Positions 1-62,467 of a stretch of 64,000 nucleotides of DNA are shown here, piece by piece. A program made the translations under genes and the position numbers. Every line of letters starts with the position of its first letter. The stretch's first letter is position 1. The notes under the pieces were generated by a model. The model did no database searches and had not been told where the DNA came from. It saw only the letters and a list, made by a program, of their open reading frames with translations. The DNA is from Chloroflexota bacterium (GTDB taxonomy: Bacteria > Desulfobacterota > Binatia > UBA9968): contig JBLMXG010000190.1 in the NCBI GenBank assembly GCA_050257635.1, positions 3,992 to 67,991 on the forward strand, in the 5' to 3' direction.

Positions 1-960
1 CAAGTTGGCGACGACCTTGACTTTCAGACCGAGAATCTTACCGTCTTTTCTAAGCGCCATCTCGGAGGTCATCGCCTGGTCGCGGCCTTGAATCGTCGTG
101 ATGAAGTCTTCGCTGCGGGTGGCAACCCATTTGATCGGCTTGCGCAATTTGAGCGCGAGATAGCAGGCAAGGATGTCTTCTCGATAGACCGGCCCCTTGC
201 TGCCGAAGCCGCCGCCGACATCCGGCGCAATCAGATGGATCCGGTTTTCGGGAAAACCCAAAACGCTCGCAATCTCAGCGCGGGCCCGATGGGGTCCCTG
301 GGTGGAAAGCCAGACGTTTAAGTTCTTGCCGAAGGGGTCGGGGCTGGCCACAATGCCGCGCGGCTCCATCGCCAATGCCACCTGCCGCGGGCTGGCGATA
401 TGCATGGTGAAGACATGGTCCGCCTCGGCGAAGGCTTTGTCGACGTTGCCGCCGTTTTTCACCAGCGTGTAACAGATGTTGCTGTCGATCTCTTCGCGCG
501 CGAGCGCCGCGCCGGGCTTGATCGCTTCCTCAGCATTCGATACTCCTGGCAATTCGGCATATTCGACTTCGATGGCATTGGCGGCATCCTGCGCTTGCGC
601 TCGGGTGCGCGCGACCACGGCTGCCACCGGGACGCCGACGCAATGCACCGCGCCGCGCGCCAATACCGGATGGGGCGGAATTTTCATGTTGGCCAGTACC
701 TGCGATGGCGCGAGGTTCAGCCTCTCGCCGATATCGTCGCCCGTGAGCACGGCTTCGACCCCGGGCATGGCTTTGGCCTTGCTCGTATCGACGGAGAGAA
801 TCTTCGCATGGGGATAGGGGCTGCGCTGGACCGCGAGATAGCGCATGCCGCGCAATTGGATGTCATCGACGTAACAGCCCTTGCCGGTGATTAATGGCGG
901 ATCTTCGACCCGCTTGAGCGCGGCGCCGATGAGTCCGTCGGGTGTGTGTTCGGTTGTCAT
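1..960 (-). CDS. Xanthine dehydrogenase / aerobic CO dehydrogenase family molybdopterin-binding large subunit (CoxL-like), N-terminal 320 codons; 3' end runs off the window
   Basis: Not in the ORF track because there is no stop inside the window. Reverse-complement translation from ATG 960-958 reads MTTEHTPDGLIGAALKRVEDPPLITGKGCYVDDIQLRGMR... and stays open to nt 1 (...MALRKDGKILGLKVKVVANL). GAGGGG SD lies 6 nt upstream. It follows the small and medium subunit genes on the same strand. Confidence 0.8.
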   Translation of the reverse strand, partial: MTTEHTPDGLIGAALKRVEDPPLITGKGCYVDDIQLRGMRYLAVQRSPYPHAKILSVDTSKAKAMPGVEAVLTGDDIGERLNLAPSQVLANMKIPPHPVLARGAVHCVGVPVAAVVARTRAQAQDAANAIEVEYAELPGVSNAEEAIKPGAALAREEIDSNICYTLVKNGGNVDKAFAEADHVFTMHIASPRQVALAMEPRGIVASPDPFGKNLNVWLSTQGPHRARAEIASVLGFPENRIHLIAPDVGGGFGSKGPVYREDILACYLALKLRKPIKWVATRSEDFITTIQGRDQAMTSEMALRKDGKILGLKVKVVANL

Positions 961-1051
961 GATTAACCCCTCAATACGTGATCGTGTTCGTGCTCGAAAG
1001 TTACAACCCTCGTGCGCTCGTTTTTCCAAACACGGGTCACTGCCACGATTT

Positions 1052-1921
1052 TTAGCCTTTTGCCCGCTCCACCGCTGCTTCGATGGCCTTGCGCGCGTAC
1101 ACCGTTGCGACATGTTGTTTATATTCCGCGCTGGCGTAGGAGTCTTCCACGGGGTCGGTCTCCTCGGCGGCCTTTGTCGCCGCGGCGGCGACGATTTGGG
1201 AAGTGAGCGGCTTGCCTTGAAGCTCCATTTCCGTCGAAATCGCGCGAAGCGGGCCACTGCCTAGCCCGCCGATGGCGACTCGCGCCGAAACACAAGTGCC
1301 TGACGCTTGCCGCGCGATCATGGCGCCGGCGCTGACGACGACATAGCCCGAGGCCGGGTGGGGCAGCTTGGCGTAAGCCGTGCCGGTTTCCGAAGACGGA
1401 ATCGGCACGCGGATTTCCGTGAGGATCTCGTTCGCGTTCAATGCCGTGGTGTAAAAGTCAATGAAGAAATCGTCTACTTCAATGGTTCGGGCGCCTGATG
1501 GCGAGTGGGCGATGAACGAGGCGTTGAGCGCGGTTAAAACGACCGGCAAGTCCGCGGCCGGGTCGGCGTGTGCGATGCTGCCGCCGATCGTGCCGCGGTT
1601 GCGCACCTGCATGTCGCCGATCACCGACGCGGCGTCGGACAGTCCCGGTACATGCCGGCGCACGAGGTCCGACGAGGCCACGTCGGCGTGGACCGTGAGC
1701 GCGCCGATGACCAGTTGATTAGCGTCGACTCTTACCCCGCGCAGGCCGGGCACAGTGCCGAGATCGATCAACATGCGCGGCGACTGAAGCCGAAACTTCA
1801 TCGCCGGAATCAGACTATGGCCGCCCGCGAGCAGTTTCCCGTCCTCGCCGTGTTTAATCATCAACTCCAGCGCTTCTTCTATCGACCGGGCTGCGACATA
1901 GCCGAATTTAGCGGGAAACAT
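1052..1921 (-). CDS. FAD-binding medium subunit of xanthine dehydrogenase/CO dehydrogenase family (CoxM-like)
   Basis: 289-aa ORF MFPAKFGYVAARSIEEALELM...LLAGGHSLIPAMKFRL...RNRGTIGGSIAHADPAADLP, the typical FAD_binding_5 pattern. GGGAGG SD precedes the ATG. Confidence 0.85.
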   Translation of the reverse strand: MFPAKFGYVAARSIEEALELMIKHGEDGKLLAGGHSLIPAMKFRLQSPRMLIDLGTVPGLRGVRVDANQLVIGALTVHADVASSDLVRRHVPGLSDAASVIGDMQVRNRGTIGGSIAHADPAADLPVVLTALNASFIAHSPSGARTIEVDDFFIDFYTTALNANEILTEIRVPIPSSETGTAYAKLPHPASGYVVVSAGAMIARQASGTCVSARVAIGGLGSGPLRAISTEMELQGKPLTSQIVAAAATKAAEETDPVEDSYASAEYKQHVATVYARKAIEAAVERAKG

Positions 1922-1945
1922 TTTCGCCTCCCTTCGCGACCAGGC

Positions 1946-1973
1946 GTGAGGCCTGAGGCACGAGGCTTGAGTT
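1946..1973. repeat. Tandem heptamer repeat (gtGAGGC ctGAGGC acGAGGC ttGAGtt)
   Basis: Read directly in the coxS-coxM intergenic spacer. The 18-mer aggcgtgaggcNtgaggc recurs at 30452-30469. Confidence 0.6.
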
Positions 1974-2002
1974 CGGAACAGGTCTCGGATCGAGGCTAGG
2001 GT

Positions 2003-2503
2003 TCATGCCCGTCTTCTCCTCATTCTTTCTGCCGCCCACTTTATCGACTCGACGATGTTCACATAACCCGTGCAGCGGCAGAGATTACCTTCGAGAGCGT
2101 GCTTGATCTCTTCCTCAGTGGGGTTGGGATTGGTTTCCAGCAGATGGACCGCGGTCATGATCATGCCCGGCGTGCAATAGCCGCATTGAAGGCCGTGTCT
2201 CTCGCGAAACCCTTCCTGCACGGGATGAAATGAGTCACCGACGGCGAGCCCCTCGATGGTTTTCACGTCGGCGCCGTTTGCTTGCACCGCGAGAATCGTA
2301 CAGGATTTCACCGCGCGTCCGTTCAAGTGCACGGTGCAGGCGCCGCACTGGCTGGTGTCACAGCCGACATGCGTGCCGGTTAAACCCAAATGCTCGCGCA
2401 AAAAATAAACCAGCAGCGTGCGCGGCTCGACGACGGCATCGCGTTTGACGCCGTTGACGGTCACGCTAATCGGCACCGCGGCGTACTCGGCCTCAGCAAT
2501 CAT
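2003..2503 (-). CDS. (2Fe-2S)-binding small subunit of xanthine dehydrogenase/CO dehydrogenase family (CoxS-like)
   Basis: Cys patterns [11 protein letters not shown] and CGYCTPG...CRCTGY. I place the start at internal ATG 2503 (MIAEAEY...) because GGAGG lies 8 nt upstream. The longer track ORF (to 2566) adds an Arg/Ser-rich leader. Confidence 0.9.
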
Positions 2504-2711
2504 ACTCCAAGGTCCTCCGTTTGAAGTTCTGTGGGTTGATCTCCGGCGAGAATATCGCGAGATCATTGGCGTTCGCCGTCGACTGTGACAGAGACGCTAG
2601 ATTGCTGTCTTACACCTGATTAGAGCCGGTCTCAAGACGCCGGCGCCAAGGGCGTCATCCTTTCGCCAAGCTTGTCTTGACAGGCCGGAGCGGTGCCGAT
2701 AAGGAGCTTCA

Positions 2712-4025
2712 ATGAGCGCTCCGATTGAAGGAGGTGTCGACGTGGATATCAAATCCCTGATCGATCCCGAGGGCGGTATCGTCGACCGGCGCATCTTTGC
2801 CGATCGCGAAATCTACGAGATCGAGCGCGAGCGTCTATTCGCCCGCTGCTGGCTTTACCTCGGCCACGAGTGCGAGATTCCCAACCCGGGCGATTTCGTT
2901 ACCCGCTACATGGGCGAAGAGCCGGTGATCCTCTGCCGCGATTTGAATGGCAGAGTGCGCGTGCACTTGAATATGTGCCGGCATCGCGGCAACCGCGTCT
3001 GCCGCGCCGATCGTGGCAACACGAAGCTTTTCACCTGTTCGTATCACGGTTGGGCGTACACGGGAGACGGCCGGCTCGCGCTGGTGCCGATGCTGGACGC
3101 TTTCAAGGATCTCAACCGAGAAAAGTGGGGCTTGATTCCGGTCGCGCAGACCGACAGCTACAAAGGGCTGATCTTCGCGACCTTCGATCCGGAAGCGCCG
3201 AAATTATTGGACTACCTGGGCGACATGGCCTGGTATCTCGATATACTTTTCGACCGGCGCGCGGGCGGCACCGAAGTGAGCGGGCCGCATCGCTGGCTGC
3301 TCGACGCCAACTGGAAAACCGCGGCGGAAAATTTCGGCGGCGACGGCTATCACATTACTGCAACCCACGGCTCGGCGCGCGAGCTCGGCGTCGATACGAC
3401 CACGAGCTCGACCCGGCAATGGAACCGAGGCTGTCAGATCGCCTGCGCCAACGGCCATATTCTCGTCTCCTGGATCACACCTCCGGACGGCGGACCTTGG
3501 TTTGCGCAGCCCGACGATCAACTCGTCGAATACATGAAAGAACATGCGACCGAGATTGAAAACCGGCTCGGACCTGTGCGGGCGCGGCAAATTGCGCCTT
3601 CGGCGGGAACGGTTTTTCCGAATCTATCCGTCCACTGGCTCACGCGCACGATCCGCGTCTGGCAGCCGCGCGGGCCGGATAAAATGGAGGTGTGGAGCTG
3701 GACCGTCGTCGATGAGGCAGCTTCGCGGAAAATTAAAGAAATCATGCGCTTCGTGTCACAGTATCGTTTCAGCCCGAGCGGCGTTTTCGAGCAGGACGAC
3801 ATGGACAACTGGATCCAAGTCACCGGCGCGGCAAAGAGCTTGATTGGCCGGCGCTTTCCCGCGAATTATCAGATGAGCGGCAACGAGCCGCCGATTGAGA
3901 TCGACCTGCCCGGGCGGGTGAGAAGCCGGTTCAGCGACAACAATCAGCTAAGCTTTTATATGCATTGGGCCAAGATGCTTCAGGCGAAAAATTGGAGCGA
4001 AGTTTCGAGCATGCAAAATGGTTAG
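2712..4025 (+). CDS. Rieske non-heme iron aromatic ring-hydroxylating oxygenase, alpha subunit
   Basis: Rieske motif CRHRGNRVC...CSYHGW. Mononuclear iron motif ENFGGDGYHITATH (E-x3-D-x2-H-x4-H). AAGGAG SD. Confidence 0.9.
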   Translation: MSAPIEGGVDVDIKSLIDPEGGIVDRRIFADREIYEIERERLFARCWLYLGHECEIPNPGDFVTRYMGEEPVILCRDLNGRVRVHLNMCRHRGNRVCRADRGNTKLFTCSYHGWAYTGDGRLALVPMLDAFKDLNREKWGLIPVAQTDSYKGLIFATFDPEAPKLLDYLGDMAWYLDILFDRRAGGTEVSGPHRWLLDANWKTAAENFGGDGYHITATHGSARELGVDTTTSSTRQWNRGCQIACANGHILVSWITPPDGGPWFAQPDDQLVEYMKEHATEIENRLGPVRARQIAPSAGTVFPNLSVHWLTRTIRVWQPRGPDKMEVWSWTVVDEAASRKIKEIMRFVSQYRFSPSGVFEQDDMDNWIQVTGAAKSLIGRRFPANYQMSGNEPPIEIDLPGRVRSRFSDNNQLSFYMHWAKMLQAKNWSEVSSMQNG

Positions 4026-4527
4026 CGGGCTGCGCCGTCAGATCGAAGAATTTCTTTACTATGAAGCCGAGCTGCTCGACGATCGCAAACTGCGCGAGTG
4101 GCTCGATCTGCTTACCGACGATGTCCGTTACTGGATGCCGATTCGTCACAATGCTTTCGAGCGGCCCGAAGATCCGGCCGAAGAGCTTTCGAAGCCCGGC
4201 GAGGGATATTACTTCGACGACGACAAAAAGACTCTCCGTGTAAGAGTCGAGAGGGTTTACGCCAGAAACGCTTGGGCGGAGATGCCGCCGTCGCGGACGC
4301 GCCATCTCGTTTCCAACATTCGAATCAAGAAGGATGACGGCGTCGAAATCGAAGTCCACTCCAACTTTCTAGTGTACCGCACGCGCATGGAGACCGATCA
4401 AGACATGTTCGTCGGAATGAGAAAGGACATTCTGCGCAGAGTCGACGGTGCTCTCAAACTCGCTCAGCGAACGATCATTTTGGATCAAGCGGTCCTGAGC
4501 GCGAAGAACATCAGCGTATTCTTATAG
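4018..4527 (+). CDS. Ring-hydroxylating oxygenase beta subunit (NTF2/SnoaL-like fold)
   Basis: 169 aa. The ATG overlaps the alpha subunit stop by 8 nt, which suggests translational coupling. EEFLYYEAELLDDRKLREWLDLLTDDVRYWMP is typical of beta subunits. Confidence 0.85.
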   Translation: MVSGLRRQIEEFLYYEAELLDDRKLREWLDLLTDDVRYWMPIRHNAFERPEDPAEELSKPGEGYYFDDDKKTLRVRVERVYARNAWAEMPPSRTRHLVSNIRIKKDDGVEIEVHSNFLVYRTRMETDQDMFVGMRKDILRRVDGALKLAQRTIILDQAVLSAKNISVFL

Positions 4528-4557
4528 GACCGAGTTTTAGTTGGTTGTCTTTCGAGC

Positions 4558-5841
4558 TTACTGTTTCTCGTTCGACCGAAGCGCGTCGAGGGCTTGCTGC
4601 ACCAATTTTCGGCGCAGTTCTTTTTCATCCTCGGGCTTGAGCTTGGCGTCGCCGGTGACGTGGACGATGCCGGTGCCGAGAACGACGCGGTTGGAGCCGA
4701 CCATTTTGGCGATCGGTTTGGCGGCGGTAATTTGCACGACGGGAATGCCGGCTTTTTCGAGTTCGGTGGTGATCGCAGCGCCGCTGCGAGTGCTCGTGCC
4801 TCAGGTGGAGGTGAGGATCACCGCGTCGACGCCTTCCTGCTTGATTTTCTCCGCCATCTCGCGCCCCAGGCGCCGCGTATTCGACAGCGGATTCGACCGG
4901 CCGCAGGTGGAGAGAAACTCGTCGTGCAGTTTGCCGATCACGCCGTTTTTTTCCATCTCGCGCAGGACATCGAGCGGCACCAGCCGGTCGGGATCCTGCT
5001 GGACAAACCGGGTGTCGTAGCCGCCGTGGGATACTTCGTAGTCTTCCGCGCGCAAGTCGTCGCTGCCCGCGATGCTATAGGCACCCCAACGGGTGGCTGC
5101 CGTGCCTTCGATGCGGTCCGGGTTGCCCTTGGGAACCAGTCCACCGTCGGTGATCAACATCACTTTGGCTTTGGAAATGTCTTTGACCGCTGGCGGGATC
5201 GGCACCGGCGCAAAAGCGGTCGCGGGCATTTCGGATTCAAAAGGCGCACCGCTCAACTTGGCCATGAGCATATCGCCAAGCCGGGTCGCCGCGTTCTTCT
5301 CGACCAGCTGATCGCGCAACCAGCCGCGCTGTAAATATCCTTCTTGAGCGGGCAAACCGATCGGCTCTTTGGCAACCAGTTTTCGGCTGAGGCTTGCCAT
5401 CGAGCCAACCACGTCGCGCAGTTTGGTCACGTTGGTGCCGGAGTCGATGATGTAGAGCGCATCGCGGAAAAGGTCGACGCCGGGATTCTCTTCGCTCATC
5501 GCGGCGACGGCCGCAATGCCCAGCTCGTCTTGCACGGCGCGGCAAATCGCCCCAGCCGCCATGCCGTAGCGGCCGGCGTCGAAGCATGGGCCAGCGACAA
5601 ACAGATCCAGCTTCTCGGCGCGGATTCTCTCCAGCACCGCGGCAGTGAGCTCGGCCTGGTTTTCCACGGCGTAGTTATCGCCGCAAACAAAAGTCAAAAC
5701 GACTTGGGCGTCGGCGCCGAGCAGCGATGCGAAGAGCTTGCCCGGTCCGACCGCGCCGAAGCGAATTTCCAGACCCTGGCCCGCATGTTCTTCCGCCCCG
5801 ATGCCGCCGAAGAACTGATTCAAATAGTGCGCGATGCGCAT
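4558..5841 (-). CDS. Glycine/sarcosine/betaine reductase selenoprotein B family protein (GrdB-like), with in-frame UGA (4803-4801) read as selenocysteine
   Basis: Track ORF 4801..5859 ends ...DAVILTST-TGA. The same frame continues GTSTRSGAAITTELEKAGIPVVQITAAKPIAKMVGSNRVVLGTGIVHVTGD... for 80 codons to TAA 4560-4558. The whole 427-aa product is colinear with GrdB (MRIAHYLNQFFGGIG, AGPCFDAGRYG, DGGLVPKGNPDRI, SHGGYD). Start is ATG 5841, with AGGAG 6 nt upstream. Confidence 0.8.
4773..4789 (-). promoter_or_regulatory. Candidate bacterial SECIS hairpin for the grdB-like UGA
   Basis: Sense strand UCGCAGC-GGC-GCUGCGA: 7-bp perfect stem and a G-rich apical loop. It starts 11 nt after the UGA. Confidence 0.4.
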
Positions 5842-8927: not shown

Positions 8928-9199
8928 ATAGTTGATCCGGTCAATTCTTGTCGACAATCCGTCAAACTCGTGTTCGGCAAGATTGGTGGATTCAGCGACC
9001 TCAATCATCGGACCGCCGGGATATCACCGAAGCGCGCGTTCCGGAGCGAAATTACCCAAAGCCTCGCTCACGATCTGATCAAACCCCTTTTCACCCTTGC
9101 CGATCAGGCGAGAACCATTCAAACTAGGCAAGTCGGCAGAACCGAGACGGCGGCGTCACGGCCACGAAGCTCTTTTTAGCCTAGCGGGAGGAGGCGATC

Positions 9200-10369
9200 A
9201 TGTCGTACAAAATCCGCACGCGAGACGAGCACTTTGCCAATGACGGCAGTCCGAAGCGCATCCTCGCCCTCGACGGCGGCGGGCTGCGCGGCATCGTCAC
9301 GCTGTCGTTTCTCGCCGAGATCGAAGCGATCCTCCGAGAGCGCCACGGCGGGGCGGAGAAATTTCGCCTCAGCCACTATTTCGATTTGATCGCCGGCACT
9401 TCGACCGGCTCGATCATCGCCGCGGGGCTGGCGCGCGGCATGGCCGTGGCGGAGATCACCAAAAAATATCTGGAACTCGGTCAGCGGGTATTCCAGAAGA
9501 GCTGGCTGCGCCAGGGGTACATTCGGGCGCTGTACGATGAAGCCGGTTTGATCGAGGAGCTCAAACAAGTTTATGGACCGAGCACCTGCATGGGCGATCC
9601 GTCGTTGCAAACCGGCTTGCTGATCGTCACCAAGCGACTCGACACCGGCAGCACCTGGCCGGTGTCGAACAATCCACGCGGGAAATACTACAGCCCCCGG
9701 CCGAACAGCGAAGTAATCGCCAACTCCGCTTATCCGCTCTGGCAGGTCGTGCGCGCGTCAACTGCGGCGCCGCGCTATTTCGATCCGGAAAAGATCGAGA
9801 TCAGCCGCGGCAAAGCTGGCGAGGAGCCGATCGTCGGCGAGTTCGTCGACGGCGGCGTGAGCCCGTATAACAACCCTGCGCTGCAGGCGCTGATGTACGC
9901 GACTTTGGACGGCTATCGCATCGGTTGGCCGATGGGTGCGGATAAGTTGCTGCTGGTCTCGGTGGGCACGGGTTCGCGCGATCCCAAGACGGCGCCGGCG
10001 AAGTTGGCAGCGGAAAACGCCCTCAAGTCAATGCTCTCTCTGATGGACGACTGCGCCGAGCTGGTGGAAACCTTGCTTCAATGGATGTCGAGCAGCCACA
10101 CCGCGCGCGTGATCGATCGCGAGCTCGGCGACTTGCGCCACGACCTGGTCGCGTCAGCTCCGCTGATTAGCTACTCGCGCTACAACGTCGCGCTGTCCCA
10201 GGACTCCCTGACTTATCTGGGGTTTATATTCGAGGAAGAAAAAGTCGCAGAGTTGAGCGCGATGGACGATCCGGCGAACATGACGACGCTCGAGGGAATC
10301 GGCGCCAGGGCGGCGAATCAGCAGGTGCGCGGTGAAGATTTCCCCTCGAGCTTCGACTTGATGCCGTAG
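9200..10369 (+). CDS. Patatin-like phospholipase
   Basis: LDGGGLRG oxyanion loop, GTSTG nucleophile elbow (G-x-S-x-G), FVDGGV catalytic Asp motif. GGGAGGAGG SD. Confidence 0.9.
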   Translation: MSYKIRTRDEHFANDGSPKRILALDGGGLRGIVTLSFLAEIEAILRERHGGAEKFRLSHYFDLIAGTSTGSIIAAGLARGMAVAEITKKYLELGQRVFQKSWLRQGYIRALYDEAGLIEELKQVYGPSTCMGDPSLQTGLLIVTKRLDTGSTWPVSNNPRGKYYSPRPNSEVIANSAYPLWQVVRASTAAPRYFDPEKIEISRGKAGEEPIVGEFVDGGVSPYNNPALQALMYATLDGYRIGWPMGADKLLLVSVGTGSRDPKTAPAKLAAENALKSMLSLMDDCAELVETLLQWMSSSHTARVIDRELGDLRHDLVASAPLISYSRYNVALSQDSLTYLGFIFEEEKVAELSAMDDPANMTTLEGIGARAANQQVRGEDFPSSFDLMP

Positions 10370-10421
10370 AAATGGCCCAGCTCTGGCCGTTGCAAAAACC
10401 CGAAACGAGAAGAGGTGCGGC

Positions 10422-12419
10422 GTGAAGAATGTTTTCATCGTGCGGCCGTTCGGCGAGAAAGATGGTATCGATTTCGAGCGAGTGGAGGCCGATCTGATCC
10501 AACCGGCGATGAAACAGGCCGGACTTACCGGCGGCACCACGGGACAGATTCTCCAGCAGGGAAACATCCGCACCGACATGTTCGAACAGCTCTTGATCGC
10601 CGATCTGGTGATCGCCGATATTTCGATTCACAACGCCAATGTTTTTTACGAGCTGGGAATTCGCCACGCCCTGCGCGACAAGCGAACTTTTCTGATCAGA
10701 GCGAATGCGGACAAAGCAGGGGCGGCGGACGCAAATCCAAAGGACGTTCCCTTCGATCTCAAAACCGATCGCTATCTGGCCTATGATGCCAATAATCCCG
10801 GCGCCACTGTCAGTGTTCTAGCGGCGGCGCTCAGCGCTAGCTTGGATTCGCTCAACGCCGATAGCCCGGTTTACCAATTGCTGCCAGAGCTGGATCCCGC
10901 CGATCCGAGCGAGTTTCTGGTCGTGCCGCTCGATTTCCGCGAGGAAGTCCAGCGAGCCGAGGCGCTCAAAGATTGCGCCTACCTCCAGCTTCTCGGCGCA
11001 GAAGTGGATGGCTTTGCCTGGCGCGCCGCAGGTTTGCGCCGGGTCGGCCACGCACAGTTTCGCCTTAAGGATTGGTCCGGCGCCAAAGTGACCTGGCTAG
11101 CGGTACGCGACTATGACGATATGGATGTTGAAGCGAACGCATTGCTGGGCACGATTTACCAGCGGCTCGGCGACCTGGTGAGCTCGGATCAAGCCGTCGA
11201 GCGAGCGCTTCAGAACAAGGAGATTTCTCCGGCTCAGCGCGCCGAGATTCGCGCTTTGATCGGGCGAAATGCAAAGACTCAATGGGAGCAGAGCTGGGCG
11301 GGTGCGGCCGACCTCGATGCGACACAGCAATCGGCTCTCTCTTCTCCTTATCTCGAAAAGTCGTTTGAGCTTTACCGTGCCGGTTTCACCGAAGACCGCA
11401 ATCACTTTTATTCAGGGCTGAATGCGTTGGCGATGGTGACGATCATGACCGAGCTAGCGCAGGCGAAAACCGCGATCTGGGAAGACGGCTTCGACTCGAA
11501 GGAAGAGGCAACGCAAAAACTTCAGAAACTAAAAGAGCTACGCGGCGATCTCGCGGCCGGAGTCAGATTGGCGATCGAATCGAGGCAGGTTGCACTGGAG
11601 CGCACCGGTCAAAGCGACGTCTGGACCGAGATCAGCACGGCCGATCTGATCTGCTTGACCTCCAACCGTCCGGGCCGAGTCGGGCAAGCGTACAAGAAAG
11701 CGCTCGCCGATGCCTCGGAGCAGGCGCGCGACGCCGTGCGACGACAGCTGACGCTTTACCAACGGCTGGGAATTTTGCAGGACAACATTCAAGCTGGCCT
11801 TGACAATATCGCGCCGGGGGCAGGTAAGACCGCGGATGCGTCGCCGCGCGTGTTGTTATTTACGGGTCATCGAGTGGATGCTCCGGGTCGGAGCGCGCCG
11901 CGTTTTCCACCGGCGAAAGAATCGGAGGCGCGGGCGATGATTCTCGATGCCGTAAAAAGGGAGATGCAAAACCCCAATGGACGGATCTTTGGCATTTCCG
12001 GCGGCGCATCCGGCGCCGATATCTTATTCCAGGAGGTATGCGAGGAGATCGAGATTCCAAGTCAGATGTATCTGGTGTTGCCGAAAAGCGATTACATCAA
12101 AGCTTCGGTTGCGGATGGCGGGCCGGAGTGGGTCGAGCGTTTCAACCGCCTCTTCGACAAGCTTCAACCGAAGATCCTTTCCGACACCGACCAGTTGCCG
12201 CGCTGGCTCAGGGCGAAAATGGATTACAACCTCTGGCAGCGCTCCAATCTCTGGATGCTCCACAATGCGCTGTTTATATCCCAGGATCATGTGACGCTGA
12301 TCGCCTTGTGGAATGGCGCCACCGGCGACGGTCCGGGCGGCACCGAAGACATGGTCAAGCGCGCCCAAGACCGCGGCGCGAAATTTATCCATCTCGACGC
12401 GCGCAAGCTTGTCTCTTAG
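10422..12419 (+). CDS. 665-aa multidomain protein: N-terminal TIR / nucleoside 2-deoxyribosyltransferase-like (DRHyd) Rossmannoid module, central helical (TPR-like) region, C-terminal SLOG/LOG-like module
   Basis: GTG start 52 nt after the patatin stop, with GAGAAGAGG SD. N-terminus: VFIVRPFG...DLVIADIS...NANVFYELGIRHA. C-terminus (nt 11838-12416): LLFTGHR...GISGGASGADILF...GDGPGGTEDMV. The coding call is solid. The domain assignment is by motif only. Confidence 0.75.
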   Translation: MKNVFIVRPFGEKDGIDFERVEADLIQPAMKQAGLTGGTTGQILQQGNIRTDMFEQLLIADLVIADISIHNANVFYELGIRHALRDKRTFLIRANADKAGAADANPKDVPFDLKTDRYLAYDANNPGATVSVLAAALSASLDSLNADSPVYQLLPELDPADPSEFLVVPLDFREEVQRAEALKDCAYLQLLGAEVDGFAWRAAGLRRVGHAQFRLKDWSGAKVTWLAVRDYDDMDVEANALLGTIYQRLGDLVSSDQAVERALQNKEISPAQRAEIRALIGRNAKTQWEQSWAGAADLDATQQSALSSPYLEKSFELYRAGFTEDRNHFYSGLNALAMVTIMTELAQAKTAIWEDGFDSKEEATQKLQKLKELRGDLAAGVRLAIESRQVALERTGQSDVWTEISTADLICLTSNRPGRVGQAYKKALADASEQARDAVRRQLTLYQRLGILQDNIQAGLDNIAPGAGKTADASPRVLLFTGHRVDAPGRSAPRFPPAKESEARAMILDAVKREMQNPNGRIFGISGGASGADILFQEVCEEIEIPSQMYLVLPKSDYIKASVADGGPEWVERFNRLFDKLQPKILSDTDQLPRWLRAKMDYNLWQRSNLWMLHNALFISQDHVTLIALWNGATGDGPGGTEDMVKRAQDRGAKFIHLDARKLVS

Positions 12420-12541
12420 CGCGCCGGAATCTCGGTCCAATGCCTGTCAAATAGTGCCATTCGCCGGACGCCTCCCTGGAAGATTGCAAAGCTTATCATC
12501 ATCATTCTATGATCCGGCGCAAATCGTAAAGGAGCGATTCC

Positions 12542-49818: not shown

Positions 49819-50988
49819 ATGGAGAAATTTTTCGCCACCTGTCCTCGCGGTCTGGAGTCGCTGCTTGCCGATGAGCTGCGGCAGCTAAACGCGGAAAAGG
49901 TCCACGCGGTGGGTGGAGGAGTTCAGTTCTCCGGTGATTTTTTGCTCTGCTACCGGGTGAATCTCGAAAGCCGCCTAGCCAGCCGTATCTTGTGGCAAGT
50001 GGCGGCGACCGGCTACCGCGGCGAGGAAGATATTTACCGGGCCGCTTACGCACCGCGGTGGAGCGATTGGTTCGATTCGGCGCGCACCATTCGAGTCGAC
50101 AGCTCGGCAACCAGGTGCCCGCTGGGGAGCCTCAATTTTATCACGCTCAGAATCAAAGACGCAGTGTGCGACAAGATCCGCCTGCTTTGCGGCCGACGCC
50201 CCAGCGTCGATACCCGGGCTCCCGACGTTCCGATTCAAGCCCATTTGACCGAGCGCGATTTCACTCTCTATCTCGACACCACCGGCGAGCCGCTCTTCAA
50301 ACGCGGCCAGCGCGTGGCGGCGGGCGAAGCACCGCTCCGGGAAAATCTCGCCGCGGGAATTCTCCGTCTCGCCGCGTGGACTCCCGGCACGCCGCTACTC
50401 GATCCGATGTGCGGCAGCGGTACGATCCTGCGCGAAGCCGCGCTTATGGCGCTGGACAGCGCGCCCGGTCTAGGGCGCCACTTTGCGTTCGAGAAATATA
50501 GAAATTTCGAAGGCCAGCGTTGGCGCGAGCTGGTGCAGTACAGCTTGGCGCGGCAAAAGCGCAGAGCGCCACTGCCGATTTACGGCAGCGATCGATCCGG
50601 CGATGCGCTCAAAGCCGCGCGCACGAACTTTAGAGCCGCCGGTTTAGAAAATGTGGTCAGCCTCAAACAAGCCGACGTTCTGGATCTCACCGCGCCGGCG
50701 CAGAAGGGGATCATCGTCACCAATCCGCCCTACGGGGTGCGCCTCGGCGAGCAAAAGCAGCTGGCGGAGTTCTATCCCAAGCTTGGCGACGTCCTGAAAA
50801 AACAATTCGCCGGATGGAGCGCTTACATCCTCAGCGCCGATATGCGCTTGCCAAAGCTCATCCGCCTCGCGGTTTCCAGGCGCATACCGCTGTTCAACGG
50901 CGCGCTCGAATGCCGCTTGTTCGAGTACAAGATGGTCGAAGGAAGCATGAGGAAGATCAAGGGGAATACCGCCAGCCCCAACGATTAA
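49819..50988 (+). CDS. THUMP domain-containing class I SAM-dependent RNA methyltransferase (RlmL N-terminal-half-like)
   Basis: MEKFFATCPRGLESLLADEL...DPMCGSGTI...VTNPPYG. Confidence 0.85.
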   Translation: MEKFFATCPRGLESLLADELRQLNAEKVHAVGGGVQFSGDFLLCYRVNLESRLASRILWQVAATGYRGEEDIYRAAYAPRWSDWFDSARTIRVDSSATRCPLGSLNFITLRIKDAVCDKIRLLCGRRPSVDTRAPDVPIQAHLTERDFTLYLDTTGEPLFKRGQRVAAGEAPLRENLAAGILRLAAWTPGTPLLDPMCGSGTILREAALMALDSAPGLGRHFAFEKYRNFEGQRWRELVQYSLARQKRRAPLPIYGSDRSGDALKAARTNFRAAGLENVVSLKQADVLDLTAPAQKGIIVTNPPYGVRLGEQKQLAEFYPKLGDVLKKQFAGWSAYILSADMRLPKLIRLAVSRRIPLFNGALECRLFEYKMVEGSMRKIKGNTASPND

Positions 50989-55995: not shown

Positions 55996-56021
55996 CGCGG
56001 GAATATTTCGCGGGAATATTT
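55996..56021. repeat. Perfect 13-bp tandem duplication CGCGGGAATATTT x2
   Basis: Read directly. It ends 12 nt before the carD-like ATG (56034). Confidence 0.9.
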
Positions 56022-56033
56022 ATGGAGGGTTCA

Positions 56034-56600
56034 ATGAAATTCACTGTCGGGAATAAGGTCGTTTATCCGTCACAGGGCCCATGTCGAATCGGAGCCGTGG
56101 TTAAGAAAGTCGTCGCCGGCCGGCCAATAAACTTTTATTGCCTAACACGATTGGACGATAACGCCGACGCAGTCTTTGTCCCAGTTGATAAAGTGGGGGC
56201 CCTGCGTATGCGACAGTTGATGGGTAGATCGGAGATACCAAAGCTGCTGCGGCATTTAGCAAATTCAGTCACCGCACCGCCGAACTGGAAGCAGCGCGAG
56301 ATTAACAACGTTAAATTATTGAGCTCAGGGTCGGCATTTGACTTGGCTGAGATTGTTGAGTCCTTGACTGAGCTGAACGAAGTCAAGGCGCTGTCGCCGC
56401 GCGATCGACAAACGCTGGATAAGGCAAAAAGGTTCCTGATTTGCGAGATCTCGGAAGTGATGGGAGAAACCAGAAACGCCGCCGAAATTCATGTCGACAA
56501 AGCTCTCAAATGCAAAAAAAAGCTCCAAGGCTCCGAATCCACGCGGGTCGATCGCAATCGCTTCTACCCTAAGGGCGCCACAGAGAGTACAGCCATTTAA
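56034..56600 (+). CDS. CarD/CdnL family RNA polymerase-binding transcription regulator
   Basis: Start ATG 56034, 5 nt after GGAGGG. MKFTVGNKVVYPSQGPCRIGAV...FVPVDKVGALRMRQL...NWKQREINNVKLLSSG. Confidence 0.85.
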   Translation: MKFTVGNKVVYPSQGPCRIGAVVKKVVAGRPINFYCLTRLDDNADAVFVPVDKVGALRMRQLMGRSEIPKLLRHLANSVTAPPNWKQREINNVKLLSSGSAFDLAEIVESLTELNEVKALSPRDRQTLDKAKRFLICEISEVMGETRNAAEIHVDKALKCKKKLQGSESTRVDRNRFYPKGATESTAI

Positions 56601-56621
56601 CCAAAACGATAAGGAGATTCA

Positions 56622-56975
56622 ATGTACGCGCGAAAACTCAGGATTAAGCTCCGGCCTAATAGTACGATGGAGTTTAGGCATCTGCTGACGGAACGGGTGA
56701 TTCCTCTGCTGCGCACACAAAAAGGCTTTCAGGATCAGATCACACTCAGCACTTCCCGGCGAAACGAGGCGATCGCCATTAGTTTCTGGGATAGCGAGGA
56801 GACTGCGGACGCTTACAATCACGTGGGCGATCTCGACTTTTTGAGAGCCCTGTCGAAAGTAATTGAAACAGTGCCTATAGTGGAAAATTTCGAGATTATA
56901 GACGCGACGGGCGGCTCTCTGGCCGGCGCAATTTCCGTAGAGCTTTCAGGAGACTCACGGTTATTAAATGATTAA
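56622..56975 (+). CDS. Hypothetical protein, possibly ABM (dimeric alpha/beta barrel) fold
   Basis: 117 aa, AAGGAG SD. ...LLRTQKGFQDQITLSTSRRNEAIAISFWDSEETADAY... resembles ABM-domain proteins. Weak assignment. Confidence 0.5.
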   Translation: MYARKLRIKLRPNSTMEFRHLLTERVIPLLRTQKGFQDQITLSTSRRNEAIAISFWDSEETADAYNHVGDLDFLRALSKVIETVPIVENFEIIDATGGSLAGAISVELSGDSRLLND

Positions 56976-57039
56976 GGATATAACTCTGGAAAACACGCGG
57001 CGGAAAATATCCGCAGATTTAAATTTTGCTGAAACTAAA

Positions 57040-57772
57040 ATGACCAAATCTAGTTGGTATCAGATGACAGCGGCATATGGGCAGGCGAATCTGGGTAAAT
57101 GAGTCTGGCAACTCCTCAACACGTTTATTTTCTATTCCTTCCTGTGGGCGCTCTTGGTCCACACGATCCGATTGAAATATCCATATTGGGCCACGCTGGC
57201 GTTGGCTGTGCCTTTATCTTTTATTCTGCTCGGTCCAGGATCGATGCTGCTATTCTTGTTCCTGCAGCGACTTCCGACTAAAGGTGCGCGAAAGAGGGAG
57301 CGGAGGAGTGTTCTCTACAATAACCTTGCTCTCTTGCTGGTCGTCGGAGCGGCCTCGTGGGCGATCGGTCTACCGGCATATTTCTCGATTCAGTTGCCCA
57401 TCACTGTAATTGCCGGAGGGCTTGGGCTGTGGCTATGTTACATCCAGCGACCATTCGAAAGCGCCTGTTGGGGCGCGTCGCGAGGCTTGGGATCCAGTAA
57501 GGGTGGCGCTGGAAGGCAGCTCGTATTTCAAGTTGCCGAAAATACCCCAATGGTTCATGGGCAATGTCGGATTACATCACATTCACCATGTTCGGCCCAT
57601 CATTCCCAATTACAATCTCCAACAATGCAACGATGAAACACGGGCTTTTCAGGCGGTCAAAGCCATCACGTCCAAGACAAGTTTCCGGTCGCTGCAACTA
57701 AGCTTGTACGATGCCGAAAAACGGAAACTGGTCAGTTTTCGGTTTGTGTCGGCCGTTGAGCAGGGTAAGTGA
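57040..57772 (+). pseudogene. Degraded fatty acid desaturase gene
   Basis: In-frame TGA at 57100. N-terminal TM region (VWQLLNTFIFYSFLWALLV) runs directly into the C-terminal third (GLWLCYIQRPFE), with His boxes 1 and 2 missing. Frameshift near the G4 run at 57470-57473. The third His box GNVGLHHIHH...IPNYNL is readable only in the other frame (track ORF 57410..57772). Confidence 0.7.
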
Positions 57773-58044
57773 ACTGACCATGGTGCAATTACCGGGTTGT
57801 TTCCGCGATATCTGGAGGCTAGGCGAGTCGCCGCGCACGCTGACTGGTTCGGAGGGCTCTTTGAGATACCTCCGTAGACTTATAGTCGCGGAGTCTTGCT
57901 AACGTCGCTCGATTGACCTAGGCTTGATTATACGCTCCCGATGCGTAGGGTTCCCGTCTGCGGTTACCTGAAATTCTTCAAGTAAGCCTTTTTCCCCAGC
58001 CCTCCAATCAATCGGCCGTCAGTTCCGGCCACAGGAGAAAACAA

Positions 58045-58584
58045 TTGAGTCCAGTATCAGTTATTGCCATACCGCTAGCTTTGATCCTTATCGGTATCGT
58101 GTTGAACAGTATGCACATCGTCTACGATCAACCGGAATATTCGCTCGAAACGGATCCGGTCAATAAACTGGCTGCGGAACGGCAGGCGAACTATCACTTT
58201 TTCTATTTGCAGAGAACACGTATTTTGAATCGACAGAAGAGGATCGGTCAATTTGGCTGGTTAGTTCTCGCGGTATTTATCGCATCGTCATGGTTTCTCT
58301 ATTCCGATGCCATCAAAGCCACGACAGTGTCAAAGCAAATCAGCGAGATTCAAACACTACCGGTCGCCGGCGGTAAAGAGGCGGTGTTAGCGCTGACTCT
58401 GAGCGACGGCAGCAAGACTCACTATCTTGTCAAAGCAACGGACTCACGGTCACGGATGTCGGCCGTGACCGACGAGCGTGCAAAGGAAGCTATTCAAAAA
58501 TCGCAGCTGGCGGAGTTGGGCACAGCGGTCAATGTCGGTGACGCCGCGGTACCTTTAGGTATAGCGCTGAAAATTGCGCAATAA
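58045..58584 (+). CDS. Hypothetical membrane protein (two predicted TM helices)
   Basis: 179-aa ORF: VIAIPLALILIGIVLNS and FGWLVLAVFIASSWFLY. No family recognised. Confidence 0.5.
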   Translation: MSPVSVIAIPLALILIGIVLNSMHIVYDQPEYSLETDPVNKLAAERQANYHFFYLQRTRILNRQKRIGQFGWLVLAVFIASSWFLYSDAIKATTVSKQISEIQTLPVAGGKEAVLALTLSDGSKTHYLVKATDSRSRMSAVTDERAKEAIQKSQLAELGTAVNVGDAAVPLGIALKIAQ

Positions 58585-58623
58585 GCGAAAAGTCGGCGTT
58601 TCGACCGCGCGAGGGAGCGAAAG

Positions 58624-58860
58624 ATGAAAAACAGCATTTCTTACAAGGCCTGTCTGATTCGGGGCGAATCGTTTCAATTGGCGCAAAACAACGGCTGGGT
58701 TCCCCGATACACTCTGACGCGCCAGGATGCCATGAACAAGTGGAACGGCACTCCCTCGCATCAAGATCGGCTCGACCAAGTTTTTTGGACGGAGAACGAA
58801 GCCGACAAGTTCGCCCTGCAGGACGCCATGCGCTGGATCGATGAGAACGCGCAGTTATAG
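58624..58860 (+). CDS. Small hypothetical protein
   Basis: 78-aa ORF, GGGAGCGAAAG upstream. No family recognised. Confidence 0.45.
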   Translation: MKNSISYKACLIRGESFQLAQNNGWVPRYTLTRQDAMNKWNGTPSHQDRLDQVFWTENEADKFALQDAMRWIDENAQL

Positions 58861-58908
58861 CGCTGAGCCTTTACTAGTGAGGAGGTTGTTACGTCACTCT
58901 TAAACCAG

Positions 58909-59397
58909 TTGCCGGAAACGGTGTTCACGACCAAGGTGGATGACCTGCTCAATTGGGGACGCGCTTCGTCCCAGTGGTACATGCTGTTCGGCCTGGCATG
59001 TTGCGCCATCGAGCTGATGCAGACCGGCGGACCGCGGGCCGATCTCGACCGTTTCGGCGCGGTGCCGCGGGCCACGCCGCGGCAATCCGATCTGATGATC
59101 GTCGCCGGGACACTGACTTACAAAATGGCCAAACGTACCAAGCTGCTCTACGATCAGATGCCCGATCCCAAGTATGTGATCTCGATGGGCAGTTGCGCCA
59201 ACTGCGGCGGGCTTTTTCAGCTCGCCTACTCGGTCTGCAAGGGCGTGGACAAGATCATTCCTGTCGACGTCTATGTTCCCGGCTGTCCGCCCCGCCCAGA
59301 GGCGCTGACTGAGGGTCTTCTGCGAATCCAGGATAAGATCATGCACGAGAGATGGCTCGTCAAGGATCGCAAGGCTGAGCCGGTAGCCGCAGGGTAA
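58909..59397 (+). CDS. nuoB: NADH-quinone oxidoreductase subunit B (20-kDa/PSST family)
   Basis: [12 protein letters not shown]...[17 protein letters not shown]...[11 protein letters not shown]...[13 protein letters not shown], with all four N2 cluster Cys. The start codon (TTG 58909 or GTG 58921) is uncertain. Confidence 0.85.
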
Positions 59398-59420
59398 GCA
59401 AACGGAAGATATCCAATAGG

Positions 59421-59745
59421 GTGAGAGGCATCATCGTCACGGGTCGCGCCGCGCAAAAGATCCGGAGCCTTTTTGGCGGGACGACAGAAGGACAAGGGCT
59501 GCGCGTCAAAGTCGTCGAAGGCGGCTCCTCGGGCTTCGAGTACAAAATAGAAATTGATTTTCCCGGGCGCGAAGACCACGTTTTTGAGAAAGACGGCACT
59601 CTTGTCTTACTCGATGCTAAGAGCATTCTTCATCTCAATGGCACCGAGATTGATAACAAAGACGAGCTGATGCAATCGGGATTCGTATTCAACAACCCTA
59701 ACATCAAGGGGGGCATGCGGCTGCGGAACCTCGTTTAGCCCGTAA
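59421..59745 (+). pseudogene. HesB/IscA family Fe-S carrier-like gene with a frameshift in a G6 run (59708-59713)
   Basis: The track ORF ends ...NPNIKGGMRLRNLV*. Dropping one G gives ...NPNIKGACGCGTSFSP*, which restores the family's CGCGxSF C-terminus. The first conserved Cys is Ser here (GGSSGFEY). Confidence 0.65.
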
Positions 59746-59769
59746 GGTGAGCACAAATTAGAAGGAACC

Positions 59770-60192
59770 ATGACCGAGATCATGGCGCAACCTGAAGAGA
59801 AGAAAAAACAAAAGGGTGCTGCGCTGTTTGCGGTGATGGACGAAATCTGCAGCAGCTGCGCCGGCTCGCCGCTGTGCGACCTGCAGTGCCCGGTAGCAAA
59901 CTGCATTAATCTACTCTACGAGGAGACTCCCGGCGGTGGACTAAAGCTGTATCGGGTTTGGGTCGACAACGACAAGTGCATCGGCTGCCAGATGGGTTTC
60001 AGCTACGATATAACCAAGATCCATAGGCACAAGGAGATCGGTGAAATCTTCCGCGAGTTTGCCGGGAGTTATTACGACGGCTCCAAAAAGCCGGTCGAAG
60101 AGAACAGGCTGCAGAAGAAATTTCAGCTTGAGCTGATTGGCACGGAGTCCGACGATCGGCTCAATAAAAAATCTGCCCCTGGGATGCGATAA
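59770..60192 (+). CDS. 4Fe-4S ferredoxin-like domain protein (first motif CSSCAGSPLCDLQCP complete, second motif only CIGC)
   Basis: 140-aa ORF. Cys spacing read directly. The C-terminal half has no recognisable family. Confidence 0.45.
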   Translation: MTEIMAQPEEKKKQKGAALFAVMDEICSSCAGSPLCDLQCPVANCINLLYEETPGGGLKLYRVWVDNDKCIGCQMGFSYDITKIHRHKEIGEIFREFAGSYYDGSKKPVEENRLQKKFQLELIGTESDDRLNKKSAPGMR

Positions 60193-60397
60193 AAATGTAC
60201 GAATTCGACGAGGGCGCCGAGGTGTCCAAGAATTTTTACGAGCCGGAGCAGATCGATGAGGTGAACGGCGTGTACGTCATGGACGCCGATGAAAAACAGC
60301 GCCTGGAAAGAAAACAGATCGAGTCCTACATGGGCGGCAGTTAGCCGATGATCTCTGAGCCATTTGGCCGGCAAGCCTTCACCCAGGAGAGGGAGCG

Positions 60398-60967: not shown

Positions 60968-61035
60968 TGGGCAGAATACCGGGCCCCGGCCTTGTCGGCT
61001 AGGCTGAGTTCTCCAAACAGAAAGCTGAGTCAAAT

Positions 61036-62252: not shown

Positions 62253-62439
62253 ACCGCGGCAAAAGCCTTGACAACCTGAATCAGCAGGCGGGCAAGCTGC
62301 GCGAGACCGCCGACGTGATCATGCAACAAAGGAAAAAGCTGATCACTTGCAAGGGCTCCAATTCGGTCGACCACTCGACGGAATCGGAAAAGCAGAAATA
62401 TCAGGAAAACAGCCGGGAAAACTTGGGCGGCTAACGATT

Positions 62440-62467
62440 TTGGCAGCAGGCTTTCTAGAACTATAAT
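62440..62467 (+). promoter_or_regulatory. Candidate sigma70-type promoter TTGGCA-N16-TATAAT
   Basis: Read directly in an AT-rich spacer. A second TATAAT lies at 62494-62499. Confidence 0.25.

Follow-up and report, generated by a model that had tools for sequence, protein, structure and literature searches.

A conserved patatin lipase/TPR-S gene pair, probably defensive, that resembles type VIII Thoeris and has no TIR gene of its own

The 64,000 nucleotide (nt) stretch of contig JBLMXG010000190.1 analysed here (the window, on whose numbering all locus coordinates are given) contains two adjacent genes on the same strand, one for a patatin-like phospholipase (gene 1) and one for a three-domain protein built around a TPR-S sensor domain (gene 2). 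Because no terminator-like site was found in the spacer between them, the two most likely form a single operon. With moderate confidence we read this operon as a conflict module of the TPR-S family, most likely an anti-phage one that acts by abortive infection, and as a relative of type VIII Thoeris without a TIR of its own; gene 2 would be the hub of the module and the patatin a second executioner. The pair is a member of the computationally defined TPR-S class, whose TIR-containing form is now named and experimentally supported. What is new here is a TIR-less, SLOG- and patatin-bearing variant of the TPR-S/ThsI kind, which is real and conserved and probably defensive in role. The two genes and the three parts of gene 2 are the following:

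9200..10369, + strand: gene 1, patatin-like phospholipase, 389 amino acids (aa), ATG start
10422..12419, + strand: gene 2, three-domain protein, 665 aa, GTG start
10422..10856, + strand: N-terminal domain of gene 2 (N-domain, aa 1 to ~145), Rossmann-like, with a nucleoside-2-deoxyribosyltransferase / cytidine monophosphate (CMP)-hydrolase (DRHyd) fold
10866..11801, + strand: all-helical middle of gene 2 (aa ~149-460), containing the TPR-S sensor domain (Pfam match aa 218-338)
11838..12419, + strand: C-terminal domain of gene 2 (C-domain, aa 473-665, plus stop), Rossmann-like, with a SLOG fold of YspA/YAcAr/DprA type

The three-part anatomy that a first-pass annotation had proposed for gene 2 is borne out by an AlphaFold2 model built on a diverse 62-sequence alignment (A1), in which two Rossmann-like end domains stand on either side of a helical middle (mean predicted local distance difference test score (pLDDT) 90.4, predicted template-modelling score (pTM) 0.84). 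A model built with 33 close homologues only had a pLDDT below 50 for residues 1-260 and was unusable, and a profile search of a set of 5.8 billion proteins with A1 returned the same close clade with no increase in diversity. Whole-chain Foldseek searches of the PDB with both models gave only generic TPR, OGT and SPINDLY matches (template-modelling (TM) scores 0.1-0.25, root-mean-square deviation (rmsd) 13-37 Å). Both end domains surfaced in a search of the viral BFVD library, in which TPR proteins are scarce. Conserved positions in the two end domains, given below for each, argue for functional pockets at both ends of the protein.

The N-domain is modelled as a five-stranded alpha/beta unit (strands and helices b3-7, a18-32, b36-38, a49-59, b62-66, a72-84, b88-94, b118-121 and a126-142) that carries the motifs VFIVRPFG (aa 4-11), DLVIADIS (aa 61-68) and NANVFYELGIRHA (aa 71-83). 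Its conserved positions are R8-P9-F10, D66, N71, N73, E77, G79, R81 and H82, and of these N71, N73, E77, F10 and G79 are invariant in 67 sequences; the conserved acidic residue that had been pointed out in the segment YELG is the invariant E77, which ends the arrangement N71-x-N73-x-x-x-E77. The best matches of the N-domain profile to PDB sequences are all DNPH1/Rcl proteins (E = 0.08-0.2), and in these alignments E77 coincides with the Glu of YELG in DNPH1, the catalytic residue of DNPH1/Rcl. The top Foldseek match in BFVD is a phage CMP/hydroxymethyl-CMP hydrolase (2.9e-5), and two nucleoside 2-deoxyribosyltransferases appear lower down. Because the N-domain has no match to Pfam TIR or TIR_2, and only a marginal one to the PADLOC TIR effector (aa 40-92, E = 4.8e-4), its place is among the nucleoside-hydrolase (DRHyd) families and not in TIR proper, so that of the "TIR/DRHyd-like" label first given to it the second half is retained and the first is not.

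The middle of gene 2, modelled as 19 helices with a pLDDT mostly above 90, matches the Pfam family TPR-S ("Tetratricopeptide Repeats-Sensor", PF20308) with E = 5.5e-11 and 43.4 bits (cut-off 27.6), and the same family is present in 120 of 120 gene-2 homologues among the matches listed. The suggestion that this part is TPR-like and that the overall N-terminal layout resembles the DUF4071/ASK region is supported: the match of gene 2 itself to MAP3K_TRAF_bd (formerly DUF4071) is sub-threshold (aa 259-341, E = 0.2), and a ThsI-type relative, the core protein of a Rhizobium plasmid, matches that family strongly (8e-39).

For the C-domain a SLOG/LOG-like nature had been proposed, and its fold is that of SLOG proteins of the YspA/YAcAr/DprA type, as indicated by Foldseek against BFVD and by Pfam matches to YAcAr or DprA in a few family members. 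The BFVD matches include at least nine "YspA cpYpsA-related SLOG" proteins, two DUF2493 (= YAcAr) proteins, one DprA-like protein and one "Rossmann-fold nucleotide-binding protein", with probability 1.00 over ~185-200 aligned columns; target-normalised TM scores are 0.35-0.65 for the named matches and 0.75 (rmsd 3.1) for one unnamed 171-aa protein. The modelled elements are b476-482, a497-515, b522-526, a532-542, b547-551, a helical insert at 555-619, b624-630, a641-650 and b654-659. They carry the motifs LLFTGHR (aa 478-484), GISGGASGAD (aa 524-533) and GDGPGGTEDM (aa 635-644), of which the latter two contain the glycine loops GGASGAD (aa 527-533) and GPGGT (aa 637-641), and the conserved positions are F480-x-G482-H483, D486, R494, G531-x-D533, E538, C540, W570, R573, W611 and G639-G640-T641. 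The window's own C-domain matches no Pfam family, and its profile finds only chance matches among PDB sequences (TTK kinase, Arp8).

Gene 1 has the full patatin catalytic set that had been read from its motifs:

aa 23-30, motif LDGGGLRG: oxyanion loop G26-G-G-x-R30-G
aa 66-70, motif GTSTG: nucleophile Ser68 (nt 9401-9403)
aa 215-220, motif FVDGGV: catalytic Asp217 in DGG (nt 9848-9850)

It matches Pfam Patatin with E = 1e-25 over the whole profile (positions 1-191 of 191), its best match among the PADLOC phospholipase effectors of the cyclic oligonucleotide-based antiphage signalling system (CBASS) type is PDLC00758 (3.5e-45), and the nearest solved structure is that of the cyclic GMP-AMP (cGAMP)-activated lipase CapV (PDB 8zr9, 2e-20). 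Since its score against the NCBIfam CBASS_lipase equivalog is 114.4 bits, under the cut-off of 200, gene 1 is, to judge from its sequence, a relative of CapV and not a CapV equivalog. Conservation of the oxyanion loop, the nucleophile elbow and the catalytic D217-G-G reaches at least 90% among 45 patatins that adjoin gene-2 homologues, so we expect the enzyme to be active.

More than 3,500 homologues of gene 2 occur in a 90%-clustered protein set; at 50% identity its relatives with E <= 1e-30 form 531 clusters, most of which share the full-length architecture of ~665 aa. The distribution is patchy and broad, with at least 575 matches among 185,579 species genomes (one genome per species). The best 80 of these matches, from many phyla, were taken as species-level loci, and adjacency was scored in the 70 of them that have at least 1.5 kb of flank on either side. 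A gene-1-type patatin (35-60% identity) lies within 1.4 kb of the gene-2 homologue in 48 of the 70 (69%), and these patatin-bearing loci come from more than ten phyla, including Acidobacteriota, Bacteroidota, Pseudomonadota, Actinomycetota, Nitrospirota, Planctomycetota, Myxococcota, Chlorobium and others. The patatin is upstream on the same strand in 39 loci, downstream on the same strand in five, convergent in three and divergent in one, and the gaps are usually shorter than 150 nt. Among close metagenome relatives (63-88% identity) a patatin is present in 17 of the 21 loci with sufficient upstream flank. Conserved neighbourhood, one of the points on which the first-pass annotation had staked its proposal beforehand, is thus what both samples give, and adjacency that persists in different phyla although the order and strand of the genes have changed strongly indicates that the two are functionally linked. 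The pairing is conserved but not obligatory, as gene 2 stands alone in 20 of the 70 species-level loci and also in close relatives with the same metabolic synteny (L001, L003/L008).

The patatins that accompany gene 2 fall into two lineages, which are discordant with the gene-2 tree. In L107, L110, L111 and L119 (compared with L094-L100) gene 2 is 65-69% identical to the window protein and the patatin just 37-38%, and conversely gene 2 is 38-39% and the patatin 59-60% identical in L062 and L067. Because the two lineages do not track the gene-2 phylogeny, these comparisons suggest that the effector patatin has been exchanged between modules. Pairwise identities of patatin and gene 2 were also considered as evidence of co-evolution; their correlation is weak (Pearson 0.22, Spearman 0.08) because the two lineages are swapped, and it was not used. 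At three loci (L002:6748-7909, L096:2751-3913 and L121:2749-3910) the patatin is split into two tblastn pieces in different frames beside an intact gene 2; these frameshifts may be real pseudogenes or indel errors in long-read-style metagenome assemblies.

The partners and fusions of the three-domain gene-2 core vary. In the patatin-less loci L046, L077, L081 and L085 the same-strand neighbour is a SLATT/DUF4231 protein with two transmembrane segments, and SLATT/DUF4231 is fused to the core in L079, P0175 and P0177; at some other patatin-less loci the neighbours are merely unrelated metabolic genes. The core is also found fused to a C-terminal TIR_2 domain (P0123), to SIR2 and an ABC-type ATPase (P0181) and to ParA plus the STAND NTPase domains nSTAND1/NB-ARC (P0143, P0159, P0164 and L013), and the ParA-nSTAND1 fusion of L013 has a TIR protein beside it. 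In two cyanobacterial loci, from Microcystis and Pleurocapsa (L075:234-4424 and L084:1449-5687), the place of the patatin ahead of the gene-2 homologue is taken by a protein of ~1,400 aa that combines three TIR_2 domains with a large WD40 propeller. Of the 126 open reading frames (ORFs) that flank 44 patatin-bearing pairs, 10 belong to TIR_2, more than to any other family, and DUF4231/SLATT comes next (3 ORFs); in the same set PADLOC finds mainly TIR-type models and a few other defence proteins. An iterated TIR search (jackhmmer, five TIR seeds) places a TIR ORF within 10 kb in 25 of the 80 species-level loci, with an additional weak C-terminal TIR match on the gene-2 ORF of L019. Of the 48 patatin-bearing loci ~13 have a TIR within that distance and 72% have none, and in the 64-kb window this search, which found TIR ORFs in 30 other loci, found none. 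With these partner swaps, fusions and TIR neighbours, the family behaves as a sensor hub of nucleotide-signalling immunity does, and patatin and SLATT are its interchangeable membrane-directed effectors.

Some unusual arrangements were seen in the same family. Direct TPR-S-patatin fusions of ~940 aa occur in three Pyrinomonadaceae genomes (L009:286-3093, L011:4645-7497 and L065:1824-4646), each just upstream of a patatin/gene-2 pair, so that these loci have two patatins and two TPR-S domains apiece. In P0236 (788 aa) a PNP_UDP_1 nucleoside phosphorylase domain stands ahead of TPR-S in place of the CMP-hydrolase-fold N-domain, and one nucleoside-processing enzyme is thereby exchanged for another at the same position. 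The C-domain of gene 2 is encoded as a stand-alone protein of ~175-197 aa on rhizobial plasmids (L093:5043-5570, L089:4989-5546 and L088:5011-5604). That of L093 is directly downstream of a giant TIR gene (472-4893), that of L089 is near TIR genes, and in L088 the iterated TIR search matches an ORF ~3.4 kb away; four such stand-alone plasmid proteins match no Pfam family.

Over its N-domain and TPR-S, gene 2 is a homologue of a ThsI-type protein encoded in a TIR operon. Plasmid relatives of ~410-450 aa consist of these two domains only and carry the NCBI label "TRAFs-binding domain-containing protein". On the Pseudomonas plasmid pA7J1 such a gene is followed after 6 nt by a 134-aa TIR gene, with a toxin-antitoxin pair beside them, and on a Rhizobium plasmid the order is N-domain/TPR-S core, DUF4231, TIR. 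BLASTP aligns aa 2-159 of gene 2 with the pA7J1 protein at E = 3e-21, with ADLVIADISIHNANVFYELGIRHA opposite ADLVVADISTYNPNAIYELGIRHA. The layouts on these two plasmids correspond to the operons of TIR plus ThsI ("CMP hydrolase and TPR") that have been named type VIII Thoeris and to the mixed ThsH/ThsI operons (Yirmiya et al., bioRxiv 10.64898/2025.12.03.692087). There the TIR alone makes canonical cyclic ADP-ribose (cADPR) upon infection and the ThsI-type protein is the responder, a cADPR-activated effector that protects against phage; cADPR added to cells that bear the system is toxic to them (bioRxiv 10.64898/2025.12.03.692087). The screen behind that work was anchored on TIR genes and could not detect a TIR-less pair (bioRxiv 10.64898/2025.12.03.692087). 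In the BcTir/BcTpr pair, which has the same two-gene layout of TIR plus core, the N-domain has been modelled on the CMP N-glycosidase MilB, the BcTpr substitutions N82A and E86A abolish both depletion of nicotinamide adenine dinucleotide (NAD+) and defence, and BcTpr itself, via E86 of its N-domain, is reported to produce a cADPR isomer (Liu et al., bioRxiv 10.1101/2023.05.26.542521). N73 and E77 of gene 2 are spaced as N82 and E86 of BcTpr, and both are invariant.

From aa 1 to ~460, then, gene 2 has the two domains of the type VIII Thoeris responder in the same order, a CMP-hydrolase fold with N-x-N...E followed by TPR-S, and TIR is the commonest extra neighbour of its family. It differs from type VIII Thoeris in that no TIR gene is present in the operon or in the 64-kb window, in that gene 2 bears an extra SLOG-fold domain of ~190 aa, and in that the conserved partner is a patatin lipase and not a TIR. 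The first-pass annotation had placed the pair outside every named system, which can no longer be said, as it falls in the TPR-S-centred systems and its N-domain plus TPR core is homologous to ThsI. It had also cast gene 2 as the maker of a signal; this has become uncertain, the closest relatives of its N-domain by context being described as a signal-activated effector (bioRxiv 10.64898/2025.12.03.692087).

With the TPR-S-centred systems the pair shares a TPR-S domain protein as the core of gene 2, and the modules that accompany such cores (TIR, YpsA/YspA-type SLOG, patatin, SLATT, and cores on their own) were found independently here, as was the link to the ASK/MAP3K_TRAF_bd region. The likeness to the N-terminal region of ASK1/MAP3K5 lies in the strong match of ThsI-type relatives to that family and the weak, sub-threshold one of gene 2; ASK1 is, however, a eukaryotic kinase scaffold, and no kinase is present here. 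Burroughs and Aravind (J Bacteriol 2020) reportedly predicted that signals derived from NAD+ are recognised by the TPR scaffold and that the animal ASK signalosome inherited this scaffold. In a re-analysis of 78 operons from their work, "Tpr alone" accounts for 29, "Tir-Tpr" for 28, "YpsA-Tpr" for five and "Patatin-Tpr" for four (bioRxiv 10.1101/2023.05.26.542521). Patatin is thus rare there (4/78), whereas it is dominant (~69%) and mostly TIR-less in the three-domain subfamily described here. PADLOC-DB v2 holds no model and no system name for the patatin/TPR-S pair, and no experimental work on it was found in the literature consulted.

Two other known systems were considered and set aside. 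Gene 1 is closest to CapV-type phospholipases and has the same Ser-Asp dyad, and the logic of a nucleotide-controlled membrane lipase is probably shared with CBASS; membership in CBASS was nonetheless rejected, as there is no CD-NTase/SMODS cyclase (none is found by Pfam in the ten flanking window ORFs or in the syntenic locus L004), gene 1 is not the CapV equivalog and its partner is a TPR-S/SLOG protein. Membership in type I Thoeris was rejected since neither SIR2 nor TIR is present. ThsA of that system (SIR2-SLOG) resembles the pair in coupling a SLOG-fold domain to a cell-killing enzyme, and in predicted "TIR + SLOG-patatin" operons that enzyme is a patatin, but SLOG and patatin are here on separate polypeptides. 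The SLOG domain of ThsA is, moreover, of the LSDAT type, and that of gene 2 is by its fold of the YspA/YAcAr/DprA type.

Both genes of the pair are preceded by ribosome-binding sites:

9187..9194, + strand: Shine-Dalgarno GGAGGAGG of gene 1, from direct reading, ending 5 nt ahead of the ATG at 9200
10412..10417, + strand: Shine-Dalgarno-like GAGGTG of gene 2, within the 52-nt spacer, 4 nt ahead of the GTG

When checked against the sequence, the translations and Pfam, the ORFs, all quoted motifs, these two sites, the non-coding gaps (272 nt upstream, 8928-9199; 52 nt between the genes, 10370-10421; 122 nt downstream, 12420-12541) and the metabolic flanks proved to be as first described. All ten flanking window ORFs belong to metabolic families in a Pfam scan (Rieske dioxygenase subunits, GRDB/Gly_reductase, a DsbH-type thioredoxin, glyoxalase, PEP mutase, two class II aldolases and an amidohydrolase), in agreement with the earlier remark that no CD-NTase, SMODS, Sir2 or STAND gene lies nearby, and no mobile elements were noted among the metabolic syntenic genes. 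The guanine plus cytosine (GC) content of the locus, 0.58-0.62, is the same as that of its surroundings and is not anomalous. A second 389-aa ORF in the window (49819-50988), considered as a further patatin, is unrelated. Farther along, an ftsH-like ORF (61036-62300, + strand) ends after 340 aa, and FtsH sequence resumes in a second and then a third frame; these frameshifts, at least two within ~200 nt, would reflect either a decaying paralogue or local assembly indels. The window region 56000-63000 has a lower GC content (0.50-0.56 vs 0.57-0.63 elsewhere) and mostly short ORFs, among which CarD-like, NuoB-like, IscA/HesB-like and NuoI-like ones were recognised by eye, with no profile search. 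No tRNA genes or Rfam families were found across the whole window.

The defensive role of the pair, the nature and source of its ligand and the activation of its lipase are what we infer from the above. Gene 2 would be a ligand-gated hub whose TPR-S and C-terminal SLOG domains sense a nucleotide-derived signal, most likely an ADP-ribose-derived, cADPR-like molecule, which would come from a TIR encoded elsewhere in the genome or from gene 2 itself. The N-domain would be an N-glycosidase with Glu77 as its catalytic residue and, once gene 2 is switched on, would cleave NAD+ or nucleotides, as proposed for ThsI/BcTpr. The patatin (Ser68, Asp217) would be the second, membrane-directed executioner, activated by contact with the ligand-bound SLOG/TPR assembly or by a small molecule that gene 2 binds or makes, and by degrading membrane phospholipids it would kill or arrest the infected cell. 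The solo survival of gene 2 in some genomes fits an effector domain of its own, with the lipase as an add-on.

Several observations weigh against a defensive module of this kind. The pair is embedded among metabolic genes whose synteny is shared by relatives, the window contains neither a TIR, cyclase or STAND gene nor any other defence gene, and in other genomes only a minority of flanking genes match PADLOC models. Orthologues of gene 2 are unusually conserved (74-89% identity over 120 clusters among the matches listed), as one would sooner expect of a chromosomal gene under stable inheritance than of a fast-turnover defence island. Sequence support for the SLOG assignment is weak, with 5 of 67 C-domain members matching Pfam YAcAr (best 1.3e-3) and 2 of 67 matching DprA (0.025), and hhalign of the C-domain profile with single E. 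coli Smf/DprA and PpnN sequences gave probabilities below 1%; the Foldseek matches came without query coordinates, and each was attributed to one end domain or the other from the length of its alignment, the name of the target and, for the C-domain, the topology of the model. The tested "TIR + SLOG-patatin" operons, in which the sensor is fused to the lipase, gave no defence in E. coli (Table S2, bioRxiv 10.64898/2025.12.03.692087). The two preprints (bioRxiv 10.64898/2025.12.03.692087 and 10.1101/2023.05.26.542521) also conflict on whether the ThsI/BcTpr-type protein is the responder to, or the maker of, a cADPR-type molecule. We think unlikely a self-contained pathway in which gene 2 both makes and senses a messenger (by its N-glycosidase or a LOG-like SLOG domain, from NAD+ or a nucleotide) after its TPR region detects a phage cue, and the messenger directly activates the patatin with no TIR involved. 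No TIR lies within 10 kb in most patatin-bearing loci (72%), or anywhere in the 64 kb of the window, so that in many cases the pair has to function without a TIR encoded in cis; BcTpr, through its homologous N-domain (E86), is reported to produce a cADPR isomer (bioRxiv 10.1101/2023.05.26.542521), whereas in type VIII Thoeris the TIR alone makes cADPR and the ThsI-type protein responds (bioRxiv 10.64898/2025.12.03.692087). The N-domain fold is one related to TIR domains (the DNPH1 and Foldseek matches and the PADLOC TIR match), and the conserved polar residues H483, D486, R494, E538 and C540 of the C-domain could be catalytic, but TIR genes are still the commonest third neighbour. CapV-like patatins bind their activating nucleotide directly (PDB entries named cGAMP-activated phospholipase), although gene 1 is no CapV equivalog (114 vs 200 bits) and nucleotide binding by it is only putative. 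If such a pathway did exist, it would be an immune second-messenger pathway without TIR, cyclase or CRISPR polymerase, with a new class of signal-generating enzyme, and it would hint at what the ASK1 N-terminus once bound, because the N-domain plus TPR scaffold survives in animal ASK kinases.

A role in normal physiology (stress, membrane turnover), with gene 2 as a nucleotide-responsive regulator or salvage enzyme and gene 1 as a lipid-remodelling lipase, would suit the metabolic, syntenic neighbourhood devoid of mobile elements and defence genes, the high conservation of the orthologues and the unexceptional GC content (0.58-0.62), and YpsA-type SLOG proteins and DNPH1 do have housekeeping roles. 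We regard it as decidedly improbable in view of the fusions and neighbours across the family, which are nearly all of immune type (TIR, SLATT, SIR2, STAND, patatin), the sparse and phylogenetically scattered distribution, and a patatin whose presence varies, and whose lineage is swapped, among close relatives; relatives are furthermore found on small mobilizable plasmids beside toxin-antitoxin genes, and two preprints give experimental support for the homologous core as a protein of phage defence. It is very unlikely, in our judgement, that the two genes are independent, gene 2 being a ThsI-like system complete in one protein and the patatin tending to travel with it either as an unrelated neighbour or as a single-gene defence in its own right: the adjacency (69%) extends over more than ten phyla and four orientations with gaps usually under 150 nt, SLATT replaces patatin at the same position, and direct TPR-S-patatin fusions exist. 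Gene 2 does occur on its own (20 of the 70 loci, and several close relatives within the same synteny), and it has its own enzymatic domain; the patatin is, besides, apparently frameshifted next to an intact gene 2 in L002, L096 and L121, but apparent frameshifts in long-read metagenome assemblies may be errors.

We thus favour a TPR-S-family conflict module with gene 2 as its hub and the patatin as a second executioner. The defining component of Thoeris-type immunity is a TIR enzyme whose product is an alarm signal derived from ADP-ribose; here a ThsI-like responder comes with a second sensor-type domain and a lipase, in a module retained by hundreds of species across more than ten phyla, mostly without a TIR gene nearby. 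If the module is defensive, it would raise the question of where its signal originates, in TIR systems that act in trans or in the hydrolase or SLOG domain of gene 2, and would provide a tractable two-protein case of a soluble sensor that controls a patatin lipase, as well as a bacterial model of how ligands are bound by the TPR scaffold that animal ASK kinases inherited.

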